Shown here: positions 1 to 22,416 of the stretch, in pieces
Numbering within the stretch: position 1 is the stretch's first letter
Layout: each line of letters starts with the position of its first letter
Source of the DNA: Escherichia coli
GTDB lineage: Bacteria > Pseudomonadota > Gammaproteobacteria > Enterobacterales > Enterobacteriaceae
Length of the DNA: 64,000 nucleotides
Strand: one strand, 5' to 3'
Assembly: GCF_044324875.1 (NCBI RefSeq)
Contig: NZ_CP172185.1
Position numbers and translations under genes: made by a program
The notes under the pieces: model-generated
Database searches by the model: none
What the model was told of the DNA's origin: nothing
The model's input: only the letters and a program-made list of their open reading frames with translations

Positions 1-29
1 GGCGACGCCGCGCGCCGCCGTGGGAAACA

Positions 30-548
30 TTAACCACCAAGACCAATCGCCGAGCGCACGCGGTCCGGGAAGACGTTTTTGCCGTCCTTGCGTTCGATGT
101 GGTTCAGTAAATCAATCTCCAGCACCGGACGGTCGTTAATGCTGAGTTTGTAGTAGGTACTCCTGACCGCATAGGTGTGAGACGTGACCTCACCCTGTTT
201 TGCCTCCCCCGTATCAATTTCCGTCACGCGGCCGCGAAGCTCAATTTCATACAGGTCGCTCTGCTCTTCATCGTTGTAGTACTCACCGACAAAGCGCAGC
301 AGCGTACCGTCGATCGTGCCGCCGTACTTAAGGAACAGTTCGCGGGTCGGCCCGCCCATGGTGAAACTCGCATCCAGCGCGCCGTCATCCAGACCAAGGT
401 CGATATTCACCGCGCCGGCCATACCACCACCGCGATAGGCTTCCGTTTTACGGGTCAGTTTGGGGGGCGTGAAGCCGGTCACCCTGCCAATCTGGTTCAC
501 CCCGTCAGTAAACAGCGTGAACACCCTGAGATTTTTTGGTACGGCCAT
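30..548 (-). CDS. P2-family phage major tail tube protein (gpFII-like)
   Basis: 172-aa ORF whose sequence I recognise as a P2 FII-type tail tube protein; its start overlaps the stop of the upstream sheath gene, as in the P2 FI-FII pair. Confidence 0.6.
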   Translation of the reverse strand: MAVPKNLRVFTLFTDGVNQIGRVTGFTPPKLTRKTEAYRGGGMAGAVNIDLGLDDGALDASFTMGGPTRELFLKYGGTIDGTLLRFVGEYYNDEEQSDLYEIELRGRVTEIDTGEAKQGEVTSHTYAVRSTYYKLSINDRPVLEIDLLNHIERKDGKNVFPDRVRSAIGLGG

Positions 549-1830
549 TAAGCACCTCCAAGCGTCGCAAATGCAGGACCAAAGAATTCATCAGTAAACG
601 TCTGGTAAAGTTCCATATCCTCAAGCGGCGGAACGGGCGTGTACTTGTAGCGGATACGCACGCGTCCCTGACGAAGTTCCGTGGTGCTGTTATCCACCAC
701 GTCATACCAGCACTCCGCACCAACGAGACGTCCTGACGTAACCAGCGCATCCAGTTTTGCGCGAATTGCGCTTAACACGTCTTTCACATTAGCAGGGGTC
801 AGCGGGGCATCAATCGTTTCAAACTGCGCTTCCGCAATGGAATCAGCCAGCACCTGAGCGGTTCGCGTGTACACCTCAAAGATATACGCCTTCGTTTCCG
901 GCGTACGGTTGCCCCAGAAGCGGAAACCGTTACGGCAAATGATGGTAGTGATTTCCTTGTTGTTGAGATTGTTGGCATCGCTGTCTTCGGACTGAAGGGA
1001 CCAGAACACCGGGCTGGAAATACCCAGCACATTTCTTACCGGCACGTTGGACAGCGATTTATGCCAGCCCTGTTCGTGGTCAATACGTGCACGTAAACCG
1101 CAGGCGTACGCCGCAGCCGGGAAGACCTCATTAGCGCCGGATTTCGGGTTATGGGCGATGAAGTCCGGCCAGACCAGCATAAGTTCGCGCTCGTTAAATC
1201 TGGCGCGGTAGCTGATTGCATCGGCGGGCTTCTTGCAGTTGTGACAGCCCGCGTAGACAAATGCGCGAAGTTTTTCTGCAATTACACACAGGGATTTTGT
1301 GACAGCTTCAGTATCCAGTCCGGGCGCTGCGATGATGCGCGGACGGTAACCGATGGCATCATCCTGTTCAGCTATCAGAAGTGCATACATACCGGTATAA
1401 TTACCGTCGCCATCCGTGCCACCAATGACATACTGGTCCTGCGTTTTGTGTGGGTATACAGGATGTGCATCTTCAGACTCATCAATACCAAAAAATGCCC
1501 TGTCTTCAGGATCCAGATGACCGAATGATGTAACTCCTGTATCCGGGGCGCCCTGAGAACTGGCATCAGGAACGCGCACCACAATCACCTTCGTGCTCAC
1601 CTGGTCGGCGACAGCCTTAAGCGATTTGTAAAGCGTCCCCTTTGTGCCGGCCTTACCCAGCACATCACTGACGCGGGTCAGCAGTGTGGGTTTGTTCAGC
1701 GGGAACAGAGTTTCATCCGCGTCATCTGCCGTAGCCACAATACCAATAACACTGGAATCCACATCATTAATGGCGGTGGCAAGGCCGGTACTTTCCCTTA
1801 CGCGCGCACCATGAAAGCGTGTTTCACTCA
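548..1830 (-). CDS. P2-family contractile tail sheath protein (gpFI-like)
   Basis: Long ORF 548..1978; start placed at the internal Met (MSETRF...) at 1830; sheath-like sequence, gene order FI then FII. Confidence 0.6.
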
Positions 1831-1992
1831 TATGTTTCACCCTTGTCTGGCTGGTTGATTTTGCGTAATCATTACCCACACACGCGGTAATCTCACCCCT
1901 TTGATGTTGTCTCCTGACAGCGACAACAAAACAGCCATTCAACGCCGCTGCGGTGCATGAAACCATTACAGAACGCACCAGGAGAGAACACC

Positions 1993-3084
1993 ATGAAAGA
2001 GCTGTCAGTTACCGTTCCGTCACCGGATATCGACATCACCATCAACAACAACACACTGGCAAACCTCACAGAGCGACTCATGACGCTGACCCTGACGGAT
2101 AACCGGGCCTTTGAGGCAGACCGCGTCACCCTCACCCTTGACGATACGGACGGGCAGTTACAGTTGCCACCACGTGGCGCACGCCTGAGAGTGATGATTG
2201 GCTGGCGAGGAGAATCACTGGTTAACAAGGGCACCTACGTCGTTGATGAGGTTGCGTGGGAAGGACCTCCAGATAAACTGATCATCACCGCCAGCAGCGC
2301 AGATTTTCGGGAAGAGTTCAACGTGAGGCGGGAGGTATCCTGGCACGACGTGACCGTAAAACAGGTTGTGTCAGCCATCGCTCACCGCTACGGCCTGAAG
2401 ACACAGATAAGCGAAATCCTCATGGATATCGAAATTGACCACGCTGACCAGACCGAAGAGAGCGATATATCCTTCCTGACCCGCATGGCTGAAATGCTGG
2501 GTGCGATTGCCACCGTAAAAAACGGCAGCCTGTTATTCATTCTGCCGGGTGGCGGAACCGGGCCGGACGGAAAAGCCCTGCCTTCGTTCGCCATTACCCG
2601 CAGCAGCGGCGACAGTCACCGCTTTCGCATTGCTGACCGTGATGCGTATACGGGGGTCCGGGCGCACTGGCTCGATCTGAAGTTCGGGCACAAGAAAAAA
2701 GTGAACGTGAAGCGACGCAGGGAAGCCGGGAAACAGAAACAGGAGAAGAGCAGCAGCCGGGAGGGTGATTACATGGAAGGCGCGGAAGGGAACGTCTACG
2801 TTCTGCGCAGGACTTACCAGAATGAAGAAACCGCACGACGTGCAGCTGCGGCAAAGTGGCAGGAGTTACAGCGGGGAGCAGCGGCATTCTCCATCACTCT
2901 GGCACGGGGTCGTGCCGACCTGTATCCCGAAATGCACGGCAGGGTAACAGGTTTTAAAAGCGAGGTGGACAATCAGGACTGGATTATTGCCAGGGTGGAG
3001 CACATCATAGATGAAAGCGGCTTCACCACACAACTGGAGCTGGAAGCGAAAATCCCCGAATGGATAGCAGATTCAGGCGGATAA
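1993..3084 (+). CDS. P2 gpD-like late tail protein
   Basis: ORF 1957..3084; ATG at 1993 is preceded by GGAGAG; sequence resembles P2 gene D product; followed by an ogr-like gene as in P2. Confidence 0.6.
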   Translation: MKELSVTVPSPDIDITINNNTLANLTERLMTLTLTDNRAFEADRVTLTLDDTDGQLQLPPRGARLRVMIGWRGESLVNKGTYVVDEVAWEGPPDKLIITASSADFREEFNVRREVSWHDVTVKQVVSAIAHRYGLKTQISEILMDIEIDHADQTEESDISFLTRMAEMLGAIATVKNGSLLFILPGGGTGPDGKALPSFAITRSSGDSHRFRIADRDAYTGVRAHWLDLKFGHKKKVNVKRRREAGKQKQEKSSSREGDYMEGAEGNVYVLRRTYQNEETARRAAAAKWQELQRGAAAFSITLARGRADLYPEMHGRVTGFKSEVDNQDWIIARVEHIIDESGFTTQLELEAKIPEWIADSGG

Positions 3085-3127
3085 AATTAAAATGAGCCAT
3101 CTCCACTCAGCCAGATAAGGAGAAGCC

Positions 3128-3379
3128 ATGTTCCGTTGTCCCCTATGCGGTGCATCCGCACGTATCCGCACCAGTCGCAATGAAAATGATTCAGGCACAG
3201 TTCGCCTGAAGTACTACCAGTGCAATAACCTCGAATGCGGGATCGGCTTTACCACACTGGAGGGTTTTAACAAATTCACATCAAAACGCGCCCCGTCGCC
3301 GCAGGGTACAGAGCGGATACCGTGGGAAGATTTTCCGGGATCTCACAGGGGGAATGCTCAGATGAATCTTGATATTTAA
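3128..3379 (+). CDS. ogr: Ogr/Delta-family zinc-finger late-gene activator
   Basis: 83-aa ORF with N-terminal MFRCPLCG...YYQCNNLECG Cys4 arrangement typical of P2 Ogr; lies directly after the gpD-like gene. Confidence 0.6.
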   Translation: MFRCPLCGASARIRTSRNENDSGTVRLKYYQCNNLECGIGFTTLEGFNKFTSKRAPSPQGTERIPWEDFPGSHRGNAQMNLDI

Positions 3380-3497
3380 GAACAATAATCAGGTTGAGAG
3401 GACATCATAAGGCAAGTAGATTAACGGCAGATACTTTCCCGCAACCACGGGCAAGTATTTAATTATCCATGATGAAATATGACCTAAATTGTTTTTT

Positions 3498-3524
3498 GCC
3501 CGCCGGAAAGCGGGCATTTTTTTA
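3498..3524 (+). terminator. Rho-independent terminator T1 (GCCCGCCGGAAAGCGGGC + T-run); first of 8 near-identical copies
   Basis: Perfect GC-rich hairpin followed by 7-9 T residues, read directly from the sequence. Confidence 0.7.
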
Positions 3525-3737
3525 TTCTTTTGTGGTTATGGGGTCATCAGGAACCACGTGCAGATTATATTTTTGTTTTTTTGGCGTTCCTCCGGCAGCA
3601 ACGAGTTCATCAATAAGACACTGACACGCCTGAACATCCCGGGCATGTCTTAGTTTCACCTTTATTGATTTAACCTTATCCTCACCGGAGGAGAAATGCA
3701 GTTCAATCTCAATATCGTTTCTTCGGAACAATCTCAT
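3522..3737 (-). CDS. Hypothetical small protein (71 aa) whose N-terminus MRLF[R/H]RND[I/V]EIELHFSSGEDKVKS recurs in the repeat units
   Basis: N-terminal 26 aa conserved in a second copy (ATG at 4907, AGGAGG 7 nt upstream) and partly in a third (around 5550); overlaps antisense to a plus-strand mini-ORF. Confidence 0.3.
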   Translation of the reverse strand: MRLFRRNDIEIELHFSSGEDKVKSIKVKLRHARDVQACQCLIDELVAAGGTPKKQKYNLHVVPDDPITTKE

Positions 3738-3749
3738 ACGCCCCCCTGA
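3696..3749 (+). CDS. Mini-ORF MQFNLNIVSSEQSHTPP (17 aa) with strong SD; candidate leader or small peptide
   Basis: GGAGGAGAA immediately before the ATG; a second copy at 4866..4922 encodes MQFNLNIVSVEQPHKTTS; the third copy has lost its ATG. Confidence 0.25.
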   Translation: MQFNLNIVSSEQSHTPP

Positions 3750-3962
3750 ATATATCAGAAATGCTAGTATCGAAAAATGAGAAAACAGTTAGACAGGAGA
3801 AACATATTAACACAAATCATTTATACCTATAGATGAAATTATAATTTCATTCATGAATATGATAGATAACTATATTGTGAACAAAATGAAAAATGGCTAA
3901 ATTAAAAATGGGCATGGAGGAATGCCCGGTTATCAATATAATGTGACGTAGATCATTGTTTT

Positions 3963-3990
3963 GCCCGCCGGAGAGCGGGCATTTTTTTTG
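3963..3990 (+). terminator. Rho-independent terminator T2
   Basis: GCCCGCCGGAGAGCGGGC hairpin + T8. Confidence 0.7.
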
Positions 3991-4190
3991 CGCCTGCCAT
4001 CGAGGCGCCTTCCCTGGCGCACACAAAGCAGCCCTGATTTTCCATGAAAACTTCAGGGTTGAGCTGCGGGCACAAAGTGAGTAGATTAGCTACGGGTACC
4101 TCCCCCTGACAACAGGAAGGGTGTCCATTATCCATGATATACAAACGAAAAGTCTTGTTTTTTGCCCGCCGAAGCGCGGGCATTTTTTTA
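3990..4190 (+). ncRNA. Candidate ~200-nt terminator-bounded sRNA unit (B1)
   Basis: Begins after T2 and ends with T3; contains internal stem-loops (GCGCCTGCCATCGAGGCGC; CCCTGATTTTCCATGAAAACTTCAGGG); three paralogous copies elsewhere in the array. Confidence 0.3.
4164..4190 (+). terminator. Rho-independent terminator T3
   Basis: GCCCGCCGAAGCGCGGGC hairpin + T-run. Confidence 0.7.
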
Positions 4191-4315
4191 TGCATCAGAC
4201 AAGATACAGCCCACCCCAACTGACACCTGAAATATTGCCGCAACAAAAAGAAACAGTTAAATTACGCGCGGGTGCCTTTCGGCTGATGGCCGGAGGGAAA
4301 ACCTGAAGGCCGGAT

Positions 4316-4549
4316 GTGGAAAGGCCCCGGAAAACATTTCTGTTTAACCGAGGCCCTAACCGCATTACCTTGACAAGTGAAAGGTTAGCGCCTCTCCGGA
4401 AAAGGAGCAAGTGCTATGTCGCAAAAATCGCTTACGGCCATCACGTTCTGCGTGACGGCAATCCTCATCATCTGGATATTGCACGGTTCGCTGTGCGAAA
4501 TACGGATGAGCTTCTGGGGAGCGGAGTTTGCGGCGTTCTTACAATGTAA
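4316..4549 (+). CDS. mok: mok-like overlapping reading frame of hok locus 1
   Basis: 77-aa ORF in a different frame overlapping almost all of the hok ORF, the arrangement characteristic of hok/mok/sok loci. Confidence 0.45.
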   Translation: MERPRKTFLFNRGPNRITLTSERLAPLRKRSKCYVAKIAYGHHVLRDGNPHHLDIARFAVRNTDELLGSGVCGVLTM

Positions 4550-4556
4550 GAAGTAA
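4416..4556 (+). CDS. hok: Hok/Gef-family type I toxin (46 aa)
   Basis: MSQKSLTAITFCVTAILIIWILHGSLCEIRMSFWGAEFAAFLQCKK: hydrophobic TM segment followed by the Hok hallmark SLCEIR motif; GGAG SD upstream; strong terminator downstream (~4650-4690). Confidence 0.75.
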   Translation: MSQKSLTAITFCVTAILIIWILHGSLCEIRMSFWGAEFAAFLQCKK

Positions 4557-5134
4557 GGAAACCGCGACGGGGGAGCAATCCCCCGTCAATCGGTTGCCAG
4601 GGTAAGGTCGATAAGGCACCCTATCTCACAGACATGAACAACAAACCCGCAGCATAAAAACTGCGGGTTTTCTTTTTGGTGTCCTCACCGACTTGAAACA
4701 GTGATCAGACTATAAGACAAAGCCCGCAATGTTGCGGGCTTACTCTACCTCTCGAAAATGTGGTCACTGCGTGGACATACGCTGATACAAATCCTTTATA
4801 TCAATAAATTAAATCTTTGTTTTTTTCATCAACAATGATTTAACCTTATCCTCACCGGAGGAGAAATGCAGTTCAATCTCAATATCGTTTCTGTGGAACA
4901 GCCTCATAAGACAACCTCCTGAATTCATCAGAAACACAGTCAACTGAAAACCAGAAAGCAGACAAACAGTGGACACACATTAATACAAATCATTTATACC
5001 TATAGATGAAATTGCAGTTTCATCTATAACATGACAGGTAACAATATTGTGAAAAAACTCAAAACTCGTTAGATTAAAGACGGACAGAGCAATGCTACTT
5101 TATCAATAACATGTAACCTGTACTTCCTTATTTT

Positions 5135-5161
5135 GCCCGCCGAAGCACGGGCATTTTTTTT
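5135..5161 (+). terminator. Rho-independent terminator T4
   Basis: GCCCGCCGAAGCACGGGC hairpin + T-run. Confidence 0.7.
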
Positions 5162-5360
5162 GCGCCTGCCATCGAGGCGCCTTCCCTGGCGCACACAAAG
5201 CAGCCCTGATTTTCCATGAAAACTTCAGGGTTGAGCCAAAAGCACAAAGACAGTAGATTAACCACGGGTGCCTTCCACCTGACAACAGGAAGGGTGTCCA
5301 GTATCAATGACAGACAACTCACATTGCTGTTTTGCCCGCCGGAAAGCGGGCATTTTTTTA
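5162..5360 (+). ncRNA. Candidate sRNA unit (B2)
   Basis: Paralogue of B1, bounded by T4 and T5. Confidence 0.3.
5334..5360 (+). terminator. Rho-independent terminator T5
   Basis: Identical hairpin to T1 + T-run. Confidence 0.7.
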
Positions 5361-5784
5361 TTCTTTTGTGGTTATTGGGTCATCAGGAACAACATGCAGA
5401 TTATGCTTTGATTTTTTTGGTGTTATTACAGCAGCAACGAGTTTATTAATAAGACACTGACATGCCTGAACATCCCTGACATATCATAATTTCACTTTAT
5501 TTTTTTAGCTTGTCCTTTCTGGAGCAGAAATATCTCAACATCGTTTCTGTGGAACAACCTCATTTGCCCCTGAATGTATCATAAATATCAGCATCGGAAA
5601 ACCAACAGCAATACAGAAGAAACATGTTAATGCAAATCACTTATACCTATAGATGAAATTACAGTTTTGTTCATAAATATGATAAGTAACTATATTGTGA
5701 ATAAAATGAAAACTAGCTAAATTAAACGTGGGCATGGTGGAATGCCTCGTAATCAATAATACATGATCCGTACTTCCTTGTTTT

Positions 5785-5811
5785 GCCCGCCGGAAAGCGG
5801 GCATTTTTTTG
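5785..5811 (+). terminator. Rho-independent terminator T6
   Basis: Identical hairpin + T-run. Confidence 0.7.
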
Positions 5812-6007
5812 GCGGTTACCATCGCCTCACCTTCCTGGTTCACATGAAGCAACCCTGATTTTCCATGAAAACTTCAGGGTTGAGACAAAAGCACAAAGAC
5901 AGTAGATTAACCACGGGTACCTTCCACCTGACAACAGGAAGGCTGTCCAGTATCAATGACAGACAACTCACATTGCTGTTTTGCCCGCCGGAAAGCGGGC
6001 TTTTTTT
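5812..6007 (+). ncRNA. Candidate sRNA unit (B3)
   Basis: Paralogue of B1, bounded by T6 and T7. Confidence 0.3.
5983..6007 (+). terminator. Rho-independent terminator T7
   Basis: Hairpin + T-run. Confidence 0.7.
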
Positions 6008-6210
6008 GGCAGTTATCATAGCCGCACCTTCCTGGCACATATGAAGCAACCCTGATTTTCCATGAAAACTTCAGGGTTGAGACAAAAGCACAAAAACAGT
6101 AGATTAACCACGGGTGCCTGCCACCTGACAACAGGAAGGGGTGTCCATTATCCATGATATACAAACGAAAAGTCTTGTCTTTTGCCCGCCAAAGCGCGGG
6201 CATTTTTTTA
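6008..6210 (+). ncRNA. Candidate sRNA unit (B4)
   Basis: Paralogue of B1, bounded by T7 and T8; its 3' part matches B1 almost exactly. Confidence 0.3.
6184..6210 (+). terminator. Rho-independent terminator T8
   Basis: GCCCGCCAAAGCGCGGGC hairpin + T-run. Confidence 0.7.
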
Positions 6211-6420
6211 TGCATCAGACAAGATACAGCCCACCCCAACTGACACCTGAAATATTGCCGCAACAAAAAGAAACGGGTGCCTTTCGGCTGATGGCCGGAG
6301 GGAAAACCTGAAGGCCGGATGTGGAAAGGCCCCGGAAAACATCTGTGTTTAACCGAGGCCTGACCCTTCCTACCGTGACAAGTGGAAGGTTAGCGCCTCT
6401 TTGTAAAAGGAGCAAGCGCT

Positions 6421-6561
6421 ATACCGCAAAAAACGATTATTGTTGGCATTTTATGCCTGACAATAACCCTGGTCATCTGGATGGTCCACGATTCGTTATG
6501 TGAATTCAGCTTTGATATCTGGGGAGCGCGTTTTGCGGCGTTCTTGCAGTGTAAACCGTAA
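6421..6561 (+). pseudogene. hok: Second hok-like toxin copy with ATG replaced by ATA (possible pseudogene)
   Basis: In-frame translation (I)PQKTIIVGILCLTITLVIWMVHDSLCEFSFDIWGARFAAFLQCKP keeps the TM segment and SLCE motif, but the position of the start codon reads ATA; the mok-like frame (6321..6503) is shortened. Confidence 0.5.
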
Positions 6562-6711
6562 GAAACCGCAGCGGGGGAGAAATTCCCCGCTATCCGGTTG
6601 TTGGGGTGGGCCGATATGGCGCCCTTTCCCTGTAGAGACAAAACAAAAAACCAGATTTGCCCGCCATTGAGAGGGCTTTTTTGTCACCCTCACCAGTGAG
6701 GGCATCATCAT

Positions 6712-6934
6712 TCAGAGGCGCGTAAGCCACCCGGCGTTAACATCCTGCCTGTCAACCCTGGCCGCAGAGTCTGAACGGCAGGTACCGGAAGGAGTACCAA
6801 AAACATCCCTGACAAGTTCCGCCACCTTCCCGATATCATCAGGTGTCACATTCCTCACCTCGGCCGTGATCCGTGGCGTACCATCATCGTTAACAAGAGT
6901 GGCTTTAAAGCTGGTGCGAAGGGAAAACAACATC
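6712..6934 (-). CDS. Hypothetical small protein (~73 aa)
   Basis: ORF 6712..6939; AGGGAGGGG SD before the second ATG; hairpin + T-run terminator on the minus strand at ~6650-6700. Confidence 0.4.
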
Positions 6935-7137
6935 AACATCCCCTCCCTTTGGTTCGTTGCACTGACGGCACGACACCATCAGGAAAAAGAAAAGCCCACA
7001 ACGTCAGTATTGTGGACTTTTTTCTTCAAAGATGGACATTATCTGGACACATGAAAATAAAATCCATTTATTTTCATATAGTTAAGTACCATGCAAAAGC
7101 GCCCGCAGGCGCTTTTTAGATTCAGAAAAATTGGGTA

Positions 7138-8451
<1,314 letters not shown>

Positions 8452-18584: not shown

Positions 18585-20306
18585 ATGCGCGCTTTGCTAC
18601 CCTATCTGGCACTGTATAAACGTCATAAATGGATGTTAAGTCTTGGTATTGTGCTGGCAATTGTCACACTGCTCGCTAGTATCGGTCTGTTGACACTTTC
18701 CGGCTGGTTCCTCTCCGCCTCAGCGGTAGCGGGGGTTGCCGGACTGTATAGCTTCAACTATATGCTACCCGCTGCGGGCGTGCGTGGCGCAGCAATCACC
18801 CGTACTGCCGGGCGCTATTTTGAACGTCTGGTAAGTCACGACGCGACTTTCCGCGTGTTGCAGCATCTGCGCATTTACACCTTCAGCAAATTGCTGCCCC
18901 TATCCCCTGCCGGACTGGCGCGCTATCGTCAGGGCGAATTGCTCAACCGCGTGGTGGCGGATGTTGATACGCTCGATCATCTTTACCTGCGCGTTATCTC
19001 GCCGCTGGTGGGCGCTTTTGTGGTGATTATGGTGGTGACAATCGGGTTAAGTTTCCTTGATTTCACCCTCGCCTTTACGCTGGGCGGCATTATGTTACTG
19101 ACGCTTTTCCTGATGCCACCACTGTTTTATCGTGCGGGAAAAAGCACCGGGCAAAATCTGACTCATCTACGCGGGCAGTATCGCCAACAACTGACGGCCT
19201 GGCTGCAAGGGCAAGCTGAGCTGACCATTTTTGGTGCCAGCGATCGTTATCGGACGCAATTAGAGAATACAGAAATTCAGTGGCTGGAAGCGCAACGTCG
19301 TCAATCTGAACTCACCGCATTGTCGCAAGCGATAATACTGCTCATTGGCGCGTTAGCGGTGATCCTGATGCTGTGGATGGCGTCTGGCGGCGTTGGCGGC
19401 AATGCTCAACCCGGCGCGTTAATTGCCCTGTTTGTCTTCTGCGCGTTAGCCGCGTTTGAAGCACTGGCACCAGTAACGGGTGCATTTCAGCATCTGGGGC
19501 AAGTCATTGCCTCTGCCGTACGGATCACTGACTTAACGGATCAAAAACCGGAGGTCACCTTCCCTGATACCCAAACTCGTGTTGTCGATCGCGTTTCGCT
19601 GACGTTACGGGATGTTCAGTTCACTTATCCGGAGCAATCCCAACAGGCACTTAAAGGGATTTCTCTTCAGGTAAACGCCGGAGAACATATAGCGATTCTC
19701 GGGCGAACCGGATGCGGCAAATCAACGCTGTTACAACTGCTGACCCGCGCATGGGACCCGCAACAGGGCGAGATTTTGCTTAACGATAGCCCCATAGCCA
19801 GCCTGAATGAAGCGGCTCTAAGACAGACCATCAGCGTTGTTCCTCAGCGAGTGCATCTGTTTAGCGCCACGCTGCGTGATAATCTGTTACTCGCCTCGCC
19901 TGGCAGTAGTGATGAGGCTCTGGCGGAGATCTTACGTCGCGTTGGTCTGGAGAAGCTGCTCGAGGATGCAGGTCTCAACAGTTGGTTAGGTGAAGGCGGA
20001 CGCCAGCTCTCCGGTGGTGAACTACGCCGTCTGGCTATCGCCCGTGCGCTGTTACATAATGCGCCGCTGGTATTGCTGGATGAACCTACAGAAGGCTTAG
20101 ATGCCACAACCGAAAGTCAGATCCTTGAATTGCTTGCAGAAATGATGCATGAGAAAACGGTGTTAATGGTCACCCATCGACTTCGCGGACTCTCTCGTTT
20201 CCAACAGATAATAGTGATGGACAACGGGCAAATTATTGAGCAAGGTACTCACGCAGAACTGCTTGCCAGACAGGGGCGTTATTACCAGTTTAAGCAGGGT
20301 TTGTAA
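18585..20306 (+). CDS. cydC: ABC transporter subunit CydC
   Basis: 573 aa, start abutting the cydD stop; NBD motif GRTGCGKST. Confidence 0.95.
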   Translation: MRALLPYLALYKRHKWMLSLGIVLAIVTLLASIGLLTLSGWFLSASAVAGVAGLYSFNYMLPAAGVRGAAITRTAGRYFERLVSHDATFRVLQHLRIYTFSKLLPLSPAGLARYRQGELLNRVVADVDTLDHLYLRVISPLVGAFVVIMVVTIGLSFLDFTLAFTLGGIMLLTLFLMPPLFYRAGKSTGQNLTHLRGQYRQQLTAWLQGQAELTIFGASDRYRTQLENTEIQWLEAQRRQSELTALSQAIILLIGALAVILMLWMASGGVGGNAQPGALIALFVFCALAAFEALAPVTGAFQHLGQVIASAVRITDLTDQKPEVTFPDTQTRVVDRVSLTLRDVQFTYPEQSQQALKGISLQVNAGEHIAILGRTGCGKSTLLQLLTRAWDPQQGEILLNDSPIASLNEAALRQTISVVPQRVHLFSATLRDNLLLASPGSSDEALAEILRRVGLEKLLEDAGLNSWLGEGGRQLSGGELRRLAIARALLHNAPLVLLDEPTEGLDATTESQILELLAEMMHEKTVLMVTHRLRGLSRFQQIIVMDNGQIIEQGTHAELLARQGRYYQFKQGL

Positions 20307-21808: not shown

Positions 21809-21896
21809 GGTGAGGTGTCCGAGTGGCTGAAGGAGCACGCCTGGAAAGTGTGTATACGGCAACGTATCGGGGGTTCGAATCCCCCCCTCACCGCCA
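21809..21896 (+). tRNA. serW: tRNA-Ser (anticodon GGA)
   Basis: 88-nt sequence GGTGAGGTGTCCGAGTGGCTGAAGGAGCACGCCTGGAAAG...GGTTCGAATCCCCCCCTCACCGCCA with long variable arm and encoded CCA. Confidence 0.9.
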
Positions 21897-22057
21897 TATT
21901 CAAAGAAGAGCTCGTACGAAAGTGCGAGCTTTTTTTTCGCATATTGCACTCCAGGGGGGATGAGAAGCCCCGACCGGGGTTCGACAACTGGCGCAGCCAG
22001 TTGGACAGACCACGAACACAGTGAGTGGGCTGCCCGCAGGGCGAGCGAAGCGAGTCA

Positions 22058-22112
22058 ATCCCCCCTCACCGCCATATTTAAAGAAAAGCTCGTACGAAAG
22101 TACGAGTTTTTT
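22058..22112 (+). repeat. Direct repeat of the tRNA-Ser 3' end (18 nt) plus its terminator
   Basis: AATCCCCCCTCACCGCCA followed by AAAGAAAAGCTCGTACGAAAGTACGAG+T-run duplicates 21879..21940 with few mismatches. Confidence 0.7.
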
Positions 22113-22416
22113 TCGCATTTTATCTGCCTGTACGGCAGTGAACGGTATAAAAATCGAGTTTTTCTTTCGGTTGGCTTTCTAAGCTGCCTGTACGGCAGTG
22201 AACTCAAATACTACACGTTTAGTCCGTTATTAATAAAGCAAAACCATCTCATTTTCCTGCTACCACCCTTTTTTATCCTTACCTTCCCGCAGCACTAATT
22301 ATCAACAACTTACCATCATCATCAAAAAAAGGGGCTGAACCTCCTCCACCCCATAAACAAAAAGTCCGTAACCTCTTTCGAGATTACGGACTTCACCAAC
22401 CTACCTAACAATTAGA

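Follow-up and report, generated by a model that had tools for sequence, protein, structure and literature searches.

Tandem promoter–terminator modules beside hok loci in a P2-like Escherichia coli prophage: a candidate family of sibling small RNAs

What is the nature of a series of repeats of about 200 nucleotides (nt), each closed by a strong terminator, in the variable end of an Escherichia coli prophage? The question is raised by a window of 64,000 nt (contig NZ_CP172185.1 of the NCBI RefSeq assembly GCF_044324875.1; by "the window" we mean this whole analyzed stretch of the E. coli chromosome), of which positions 1–7094 belong to a defective P2-like prophage and form its right end. Four of these repeats had been proposed, from an inspection of the sequence, to represent a tandem family of small RNAs (sRNAs), a proposal referred to below as the original prediction. 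The analysis described here leaves a set of paralogous sRNA genes as the best reading of the locus, with the qualification that the transcript is probably not the whole 200-nt unit. The RNAs likely correspond to the 3' ~95 nt of each unit, and such genes would number eight, not four. Most likely, the array represents a new family of prophage-encoded sibling sRNAs of ~80–100 nt.

The four proposed repeats are indeed present as direct copies of 197–202 nt on the plus strand, at 3990–4189, 5162–5359, 5811–6007 and 6008–6209 (hereafter repeat units B1, B2, B3 and B4), and together they form a single 174-nt repeat family with identities to the reference copy of 66–95%. As anticipated, all four units end with a G+C-rich hairpin and, after it, a T run (T7 rather than T8), whereas the exact hairpin originally quoted (GCCCGCCGGAAAGCGGGC) is present in the units at 5162 and 5811 only, the other two having GCCCGCCGAAGCGCGGGC and GCCCGCCAAAGCGCGGGC. 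Terminator-like sites are strongly enriched in this part of the prophage (18 between positions 3000 and 7300, vs. 5.2 ± 2.8 in shuffled sequences), and one 30-nt terminator is present nine times from 3495 to 6685.

These four units are part of a larger family, as the array contains eight modules (five of a type termed B and three of a type termed A), all on the plus strand. The first of them, B0 (3394–3523), starts 15 nt past the ogr stop codon, in the position of the ogr 3' untranslated region, and comprises only the 3' half of a unit, with a -35 element TTGAGA at 3394–3399, a -10 element TAGATT at 3417–3422, a predicted RNA at ~3429–3523 and a terminator at 3497–3523. Modules A1 (3875–3989; -35 TTGTGA at 3875–3880, -10 TAAATT at 3898–3903, predicted RNA ~3910–3989), A2 (5047–5161; -35 at 5047–5052, -10 TAGATT at 5070–5075, predicted RNA ~5082–5161) and A3 (5695–5810; -35 at 5695–5700, -10 at 5718–5723, predicted RNA ~5730–5810) have the same terminator as the B type and a body that is unlike it. 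In the complete units, B1 is composed of upstream DNA with a near-palindrome (3990–4058), a promoter (4059–4087) and a predicted RNA (~4094–4189), and the corresponding promoters and predicted RNAs are at 5231–5259 and ~5266–5359 in B2, at 5880–5908 and ~5915–6007 in B3, and at 6077–6105 and ~6112–6209 in B4.

Where would transcription of a module begin? Inspection of the 5' ends of the units, proposed earlier as a check, revealed nothing promoter-like in front of any of them, and a sequence of the form TTGAG(A/C)-N17-TAGATT occurs in the middle of every unit. When all distinct modules (11 in total, compared from promoter through terminator) were aligned over their final 150 nt, the A and B types turned out to be homologous from this promoter-like element to the end, the homology of B0 and of the A types to the B units beginning at the -35 element. 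The predicted module promoter is of a hok-type, sigma-70-like form (-35 TTGnG(a/c), a 17-nt variable spacer and -10 TAnATTA), and 9 of its 12 hexamer positions are invariant, compared with 15 of 102 in the spacer and body (Fisher p = 3e-5, a value somewhat inflated by the relatedness of the sequences and by an alignment anchored on conserved blocks). Between module types, the spacers are only 24–53% and the bodies 47–58% identical. We favor the shorter RNA because the promoter lies mid-unit, because the homology of B0 and the A types extends from the promoter onward only, and because this promoter is homologous to that of hok, as detailed below.

The predicted RNAs (~80 nt for the A type and ~95 nt for the B type) fold into a hairpin, an open middle part and a terminator, with z-scores from -0.9 to -2.7 (-2.7 for B0). 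Their 5' stem-loop starts ~7 nt past the -10 element and always occupies the same position, with a sequence of its own, unrelated to the other two, in each of the types A, B and B0. A single-stranded UAUC(A/C)AU motif is found in all types 32–35 nt before the terminator (as counted from the alignment) and is followed by a U-rich tract. All modules end in UUUUGCCCGCC...GGGC(A)U7-9, that is, in an intrinsic terminator with a U tail of at least 7 preceded by a U-rich tract, as is characteristic of Hfq-type sRNAs. Two stem-loops are common to all copies, in line with the conserved internal stem-loops of the original prediction. The accompanying claim of mostly compensatory differences did not survive, given that 25 of the 36 predicted pairs are invariant, just one pair has a change on both sides, and covariation is at the level of shuffled sequences. 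As to other identities of the units, a coding function was rejected, since the open reading frames (ORFs) on both strands shift frame between copies or cross the terminator. A scan of the units against Rfam 15 yielded no match at the gathering threshold; at E values up to 10, only weak, terminator-driven matches of 18–24 bits were obtained on the units (RyhB, AgvB, Trp leader).

The version originally envisaged, in which a whole ~200-nt unit is one sRNA that starts just after the preceding terminator, has some attractive features, such as the sharp delimitation of the units by terminators, a very stable 13–14-bp hairpin in the 5' half and a z-score of -2.7 for the fold of the entire unit. We nonetheless consider it very improbable: a promoter in front of the units is missing and, for the B3–B4 pair, would fall within the B3 terminator; B0 and the A types are devoid of the 5' half altogether; the first hairpin of the upstream part is out of register between copies; and the mid-unit promoter has its homolog in the hok promoter.

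The first ~70 nt of the B repeats are thus upstream of the promoter. They contain a 31-nt near-palindrome (AACCCTGATTTTCCATGAAAACTTCAGGGTT) at 4028–4058, 5200–5230, 5849–5879 and 6046–6076, whose final two bases are, in every B promoter, the first two of the -35 element, and which, as a guess, may be a protein-binding site. In an allele from a different arrangement of the array (B6, see below), two outer pairs of the near-palindrome are broken and the inner stem gains one pair. Another palindrome, CTATAGATGAAAT...ATTTCATCTATAG, is present in the region upstream of the A modules and is perfect in A2 only. No relatives of the B upstream half were detectable within the window or the prophage, and the notion that the near-palindromes are repeated operators was rejected, as they have no other occurrence in either. 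These sequences bear on a very improbable reading in which the modules act as cis-acting DNA, either as a terminator stack insulating host genes from phage late transcription or as operators and joints for cassette exchange. The presence of strong near-palindromes upstream of A and B promoters alike, the two terminator copies flanking the second hok locus (6181–6210 and 6656–6685) and a module order that varies between prophages, with breakpoints at terminators, would all fit such a role. However, insulation needs just one or two terminators, the palindromes are found nowhere else in the prophage, and the conserved promoters and the conserved single-stranded motif are left unexplained.

The origin of the modules is suggested by their neighbors. 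Besides the four units, the span 3990–6210 contains a hok/sok locus that is intact, att-like sequence and what is left of copies of a small ORF. The intact locus (hok1, 4234–4677, plus strand) has a promoter TTGCCG-N17-TAAATT, an mRNA 5' end (tac) at 4270, a Hok ORF at 4416–4556, an fbi element AAGGCACCC at 4613–4621 and its own terminator at 4643–4677. Its protein is annotated in RefSeq as a Hok/Gef family protein and matches a MokW-like host-killing protein in PHROG (E 8.5e-22), and its Rfam sok match (4270–4429, 46 bits) is under the gathering score. A second, decayed locus (hok2, 6275–6685, plus strand) has ATA instead of ATG as the Hok start and, in the window, a deletion of 15 nt of its promoter that includes the -10 element; in a metagenome copy of this locus (L098), the promoter is intact and the start is still ATA. 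Unlike hok1, hok2 ends in a module-type terminator (6656–6685; 0/500 shuffles for most modules). Neither toxin nor antitoxin can be recognized in the repeats: at E values up to 10, the sok model matches only 4270–4429 and 6275–6432, leaving the units without sok, and a Hok/Gef reading frame with an overlapping mok is absent from the units, Hok ORFs being found only at 4416–4556 and, decayed, at hok2.

The similarity of the modules to hok begins at the promoter and extends into the transcript. At the 5' side, hok1 (TTGCCG-N17-TAAATT-ACGCGC-GGGTGCCTTTCGGCTGA) aligns with B2 (TTGAGC-N17-TAGATT-AACCAC-GGGTGCCTTCCACCTGA), and over the promoter plus the initial 17 nt the modules match hok1 so well that 0/300 shuffles reach the score of B2, B4 or A1. 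A covariance model built from the 11 modules gives weak but consistent matches (15–19 bits) on the hok promoter, both in the window (4231–4307) and in ~35 related P2-like prophages. A 10-nt sequence common to B2 and hok1 (CGGGTGCCTT) spans the hok1 5' end as well as the predicted 5' end of B2. Position 1 of the Rfam sok model, which we take to be the hok mRNA 5' end (R1 sequence), maps to 4270, the first G of this shared motif, in support of the start predicted for the B RNAs.

In the inactive full-length hok mRNA, the 5' end, which is the tac element, is base-paired to the fbi element located close to the 3' end (PMC9841398). A comparable pairing is found in the B type, whose 5' end GGGUGCCUU is that of hok1 tac and whose stem-loop 3' arm pairs with it in every B copy, the same arm aligning with the hok2 fbi element. 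Furthermore, a global alignment of the hok2 tail (fbi GGCGCCC through the terminator) with the B1/B4/B6 body (stem-loop 3' arm GGTGTCC through the terminator) has z = 3.9 and 0/2000 shuffles, and that with the B2 body is weaker (20/2000 shuffles). Significant homology to hok in the transcript body is thus limited to B1, B4 and B6 and, less strongly, B2. The corresponding comparisons with the bodies of the A types and of B0 were not significant, nor was homology of the B body to the 3' end of hok1.

Based on these observations, we propose an explanation to which we would assign an even chance: the array would consist of eight paralogous, autonomous prophage mini-genes making sRNAs, of which the B type arose from hok by internal deletion and was then multiplied. 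Each mini-gene would combine a hok-type sigma-70 promoter, a non-coding RNA of ~80 nt (A) or ~95 nt (B) and a strong intrinsic terminator. In this scenario, a hok2-like locus would have lost everything between about +17 and fbi, thus removing mok, hok and sok, and would have kept the promoter, the first ~17 nt (tac) and the terminator, as well as, in B1, B4 and B6, fbi and the 3' tail. The old tac:fbi helix would have become a short hairpin closing a small loop, that is, the B 5' stem-loop, and the mini-genes would have multiplied via recombination between identical terminators before diverging. The resulting RNA would be organized as enterobacterial Hfq-type sRNAs usually are, with a 5' stem-loop, an open UAUC(A/C)AU stretch, a U-rich tract and a terminator with 7–9 U. 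We infer that the modules may be transcribed in lysogens and, from this architecture, that their RNAs may regulate host or phage mRNAs by base-pairing in trans via the open single-stranded motif, probably with Hfq. The candidate targets dismissed as chance-level matches include a 9-nt match in an early prophage gene and a duplex of A1 with the hok2 pseudogene (-28 kcal/mol), which has no hok1 counterpart.

The shared ends of hok and the B type also lend themselves to a more specific interpretation, in which B RNAs are mini-hok decoys. Their tac would bind fbi or ucb in full-length hok mRNAs, whether those of this element or of others, and thereby shift the timing of Hok activation. The B2 5' end is identical to hok1 tac over 10 nt and complementary to hok1 fbi (4613–4621), and B1 and B4 are each directly upstream of a hok locus. 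Set against this are a predicted fold that sequesters the tac-like end in the 5' stem-loop, an A for G in the motif of B1, B3 and B5, arrays next to copA and ihfA that are without any hok, and the lack of a tac sequence in the A types and B0, and such a role seems to us decidedly unlikely. We attach just as little credence to the broader idea that B RNAs are trans-acting mimics of both hok mRNA ends, serving as decoys for fbi/ucb of host, plasmid or rival-prophage hok mRNAs; if true, such mimicry would trigger or block Hok killing and thus constitute an RNA weapon or shield between mobile elements.

How were the modules assembled, and how widely are they spread? The repeat array occupies the cargo region of the prophage, between ogr and attR. 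Upstream, at 1–3379, ORFs and RefSeq annotation identify P2-like prophage genes for the tail sheath, the tail tube, gpD and Ogr, with ogr (3128–3379, plus strand; ogr/Delta-like zinc finger protein in RefSeq), the late-gene activator, as the last P2-like core gene, after which the cargo starts. Downstream, a comparison with the empty site in K-12 locates the prophage end at ~7094, and the attR core AAAAGCGCCCGCAGG (7095–7112, unstranded; defined by comparison with the empty K-12 site and the dmsA-side junction) is inside the serS terminator, followed by the host genes serS (7138–8430, minus strand), rarA and lolA. In a reference genome that has this array too, the prophage is a 17.5-kb remnant that extends from int to ogr between dmsA and serS, and the resident prophage is without replication, head and terminase genes. 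On insertion into the serS transcription terminator, the P2-like phage restores this terminator from its own core copy (7095–7112; ~20090–20110 in the sequence L100), and sister prophages occupy sites adjoining copA and ihfA.

Across these three integration sites (adjoining serS, copA and ihfA), the module-bearing lineage displays three arrangements: ogr-B0-ORF-A1-B1-hok1; ogr-B0-ORF-A2-B2-ORF'-A3-B3-B4-hok2; and ogr-B0-ORF-A4-B5-B6. The array of the window is the first of them followed by a truncated version of the second, joined near 4800–4841, and the two fused right ends also exist separately. A sequence resembling the P' arm of att, with TGGTCA/TGGACA repeats (4760–4841, unstranded), has counterparts at the right ends of numerous related P2-like prophages; one prophage right arm ends here, and beyond it comes another right arm, which is truncated. 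Breakpoints between arrangements are at terminators or inside the small ORF, in keeping with recombination between repeated segments. The DNA just 5' of the A modules (3796–3839, 4969–5012 and 5616–5659) also resembles the att P' arm at 4771–4814 and 7043–7086, containing TGGACA repeats and then AATACAAATCATTTATA; because such P' arm-like DNA precedes each A module, a capture of A/B segments via nested integration or imprecise excision is suggested.

The distribution of the family is very narrow. The units are present, and never annotated, in 30 of 5,426 complete E. coli genomes, and phage records (n = 50,697) had no match to them. An exact-pattern scan detected them in 3 viral contigs and, one chance match aside, in 5 metagenome contigs, but in none of the 100,044 genomes representing species. 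A scan for the terminator alone returned unrelated phages only. The surroundings of related ogr genes (Ogr 71–73% identical) were examined at 80 loci, of which 77 were new; hok was found directly after ogr and modules were not. In one of the viral contigs (L006, 1–~90, minus strand), a B unit is broken after ~45 nt by other sequence, presumably an IS10 end. Among the papers covered by searches with sequence strings and keywords, none contained the sequences or dealt with this locus.

These data on decay, rearrangement and distribution make non-functional debris the main and serious rival to the sRNA-family reading, although we hold it to be somewhat unlikely. According to this rival, the modules are toxin-less hok loci that were copied passively by unequal recombination at terminators and by right-end fusion, and any transcripts of them would have no role. 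The derivation of the modules from hok, the decay of the neighboring hok2 itself, the truncated and degenerate copies of the small ORF, the loss of the 5' hairpin in A2 and the origin of the window array as a fusion of two right ends that are also seen separately can all be accommodated by passive copying. Several further results speak for this rival or, more generally, count against our proposal. No covariation above controls was detected in either the whole units or the short RNAs (score 0.067 vs. 0.068 in shuffles), which we attribute to the fact that only ~7 distinct B sequences exist, with nearly invariant stems. The family is young as well as narrowly distributed, and promoter conservation may partly reflect this recency, in addition to the inflation of the test mentioned above. 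With its decayed hairpin, A2 has a fold z-score of only -1.05. Homology of the body to hok is confined to a subset of B modules, as noted. Finally, a target search by duplex energies and motif scans over the prophage and the window returned chance-level matches only.

On the other side of the balance, passive copying does not readily explain why hexamers and terminators are invariant across types despite the divergence of spacers and bodies, why three different 5' hairpin sequences occupy one and the same position in A, B and B0, and why the modules are kept in every prophage of the lineage seen, at all three integration sites. The anatomy of the modules, their homologies and their distribution are direct observations. 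Their transcription we regard as more probable than not, because the promoter is conserved and homologous to that of hok, the terminators are strong, and the modules have been retained throughout the lineage seen.

Another repeated component of the array is a small ORF of 71 aa (WP_001236182.1, of a small but genuine protein family, MGLLNRNDIEIE...) at 3522–3737 on the minus strand. The ORF and B0 converge, such that the stop codon of the former and the terminator T run of the latter overlap; the ORF mRNA would run antisense into B0. A truncated copy of this ORF is at 4809–4976 (minus strand), and a further relic is found at ~5380–5560. The ORF has no match in Pfam, NCBIfam or PADLOC and matches only a PHROG family of unknown function. 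In distant relatives, the family adjoins hok or lies close to a primase-like (Toprim-domain) gene and sometimes forms the C-terminal part of proteins of 128–133 aa; no modules adjoin these distant homologs.

A comparison with known systems further defines the position of the candidate sRNA family. With hok/sok, the modules have in common a homologous promoter, the same first ~17 nt (tac) and an fbi-equivalent 3' arm that pairs with the 5' end; they share the terminator of the neighboring hok2 and sit next to ogr, where P2-like relatives carry hok. They differ from hok/sok in the absence of a mok or hok frame and of sok (the sok model matching just the two hok loci), in an RNA length of ~95 nt vs. 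~400 nt, and in the presence of three to six copies per prophage. The nearest described systems are the lambdoid-prophage Pas sRNAs, other prophage-encoded sRNAs and tandem sibling sRNAs. Several E. coli prophage sRNAs (PasA-D, AgvB/AsxR, Esr41, DicF, svsR) bind Hfq (bioRxiv 10.64898/2026.05.13.724894; PMC12803456). Like the modules, these sRNAs (same sources) are intergenic, belong to the accessory genome of some E. coli lineages in variable copy number, and spread with prophages and by inter-prophage recombination. They are, however, located in lambdoid prophages and were found experimentally, whereas the modules are part of a P2-like prophage and have no detectable similarity to any Rfam family. 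Tandem sibling sRNAs (OmrA/OmrB, Qrr1-5, LhrC1-5, AbcR1/2; PMC4211561) are likewise head-to-tail paralogs, each with a promoter and a terminator, whose sequence varies except for a conserved terminator and a short conserved motif that is single-stranded; in contrast to the modules, which are confined to one phage lineage, they are core-genome regulators with known targets and transcription factors. The modules also resemble phage morons (promoter-gene-terminator units near att or between core genes) in being autonomous units in a variable region next to att, and they differ from morons by a non-coding RNA payload and by reiteration of the unit.

Elsewhere in the window, at 21809–22203, there is a tRNA-Ser(GGA) gene, to judge from the gene order serW, and after it an element in which the 3' end of the tRNA and its terminator recur (Rfam RtT, 48.6 bits). 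Two orphan type I-F CRISPR repeats (22121–22144 and 22176–22203) come next, separated by a single spacer of 31 nt and lacking cas genes in the vicinity, presumably the known CRISPR remnant between clpA and infA.

What would these modules mean for the biology of P2-like phages and their hosts? If they are not expressed, the above is merely an account of the decay and reshuffling of a toxin locus in a prophage cargo region. If they are expressed, the array would represent an undescribed family of sibling sRNAs in a P2-like phage and an unusually clear case of sRNA birth, in which a toxin mRNA loses its coding middle, keeps its promoter, paired ends and terminator, and multiplies. It would thereby offer a concrete example for the question of how accessory-genome sRNAs originate, with possible RNA-level cross-talk with hok.

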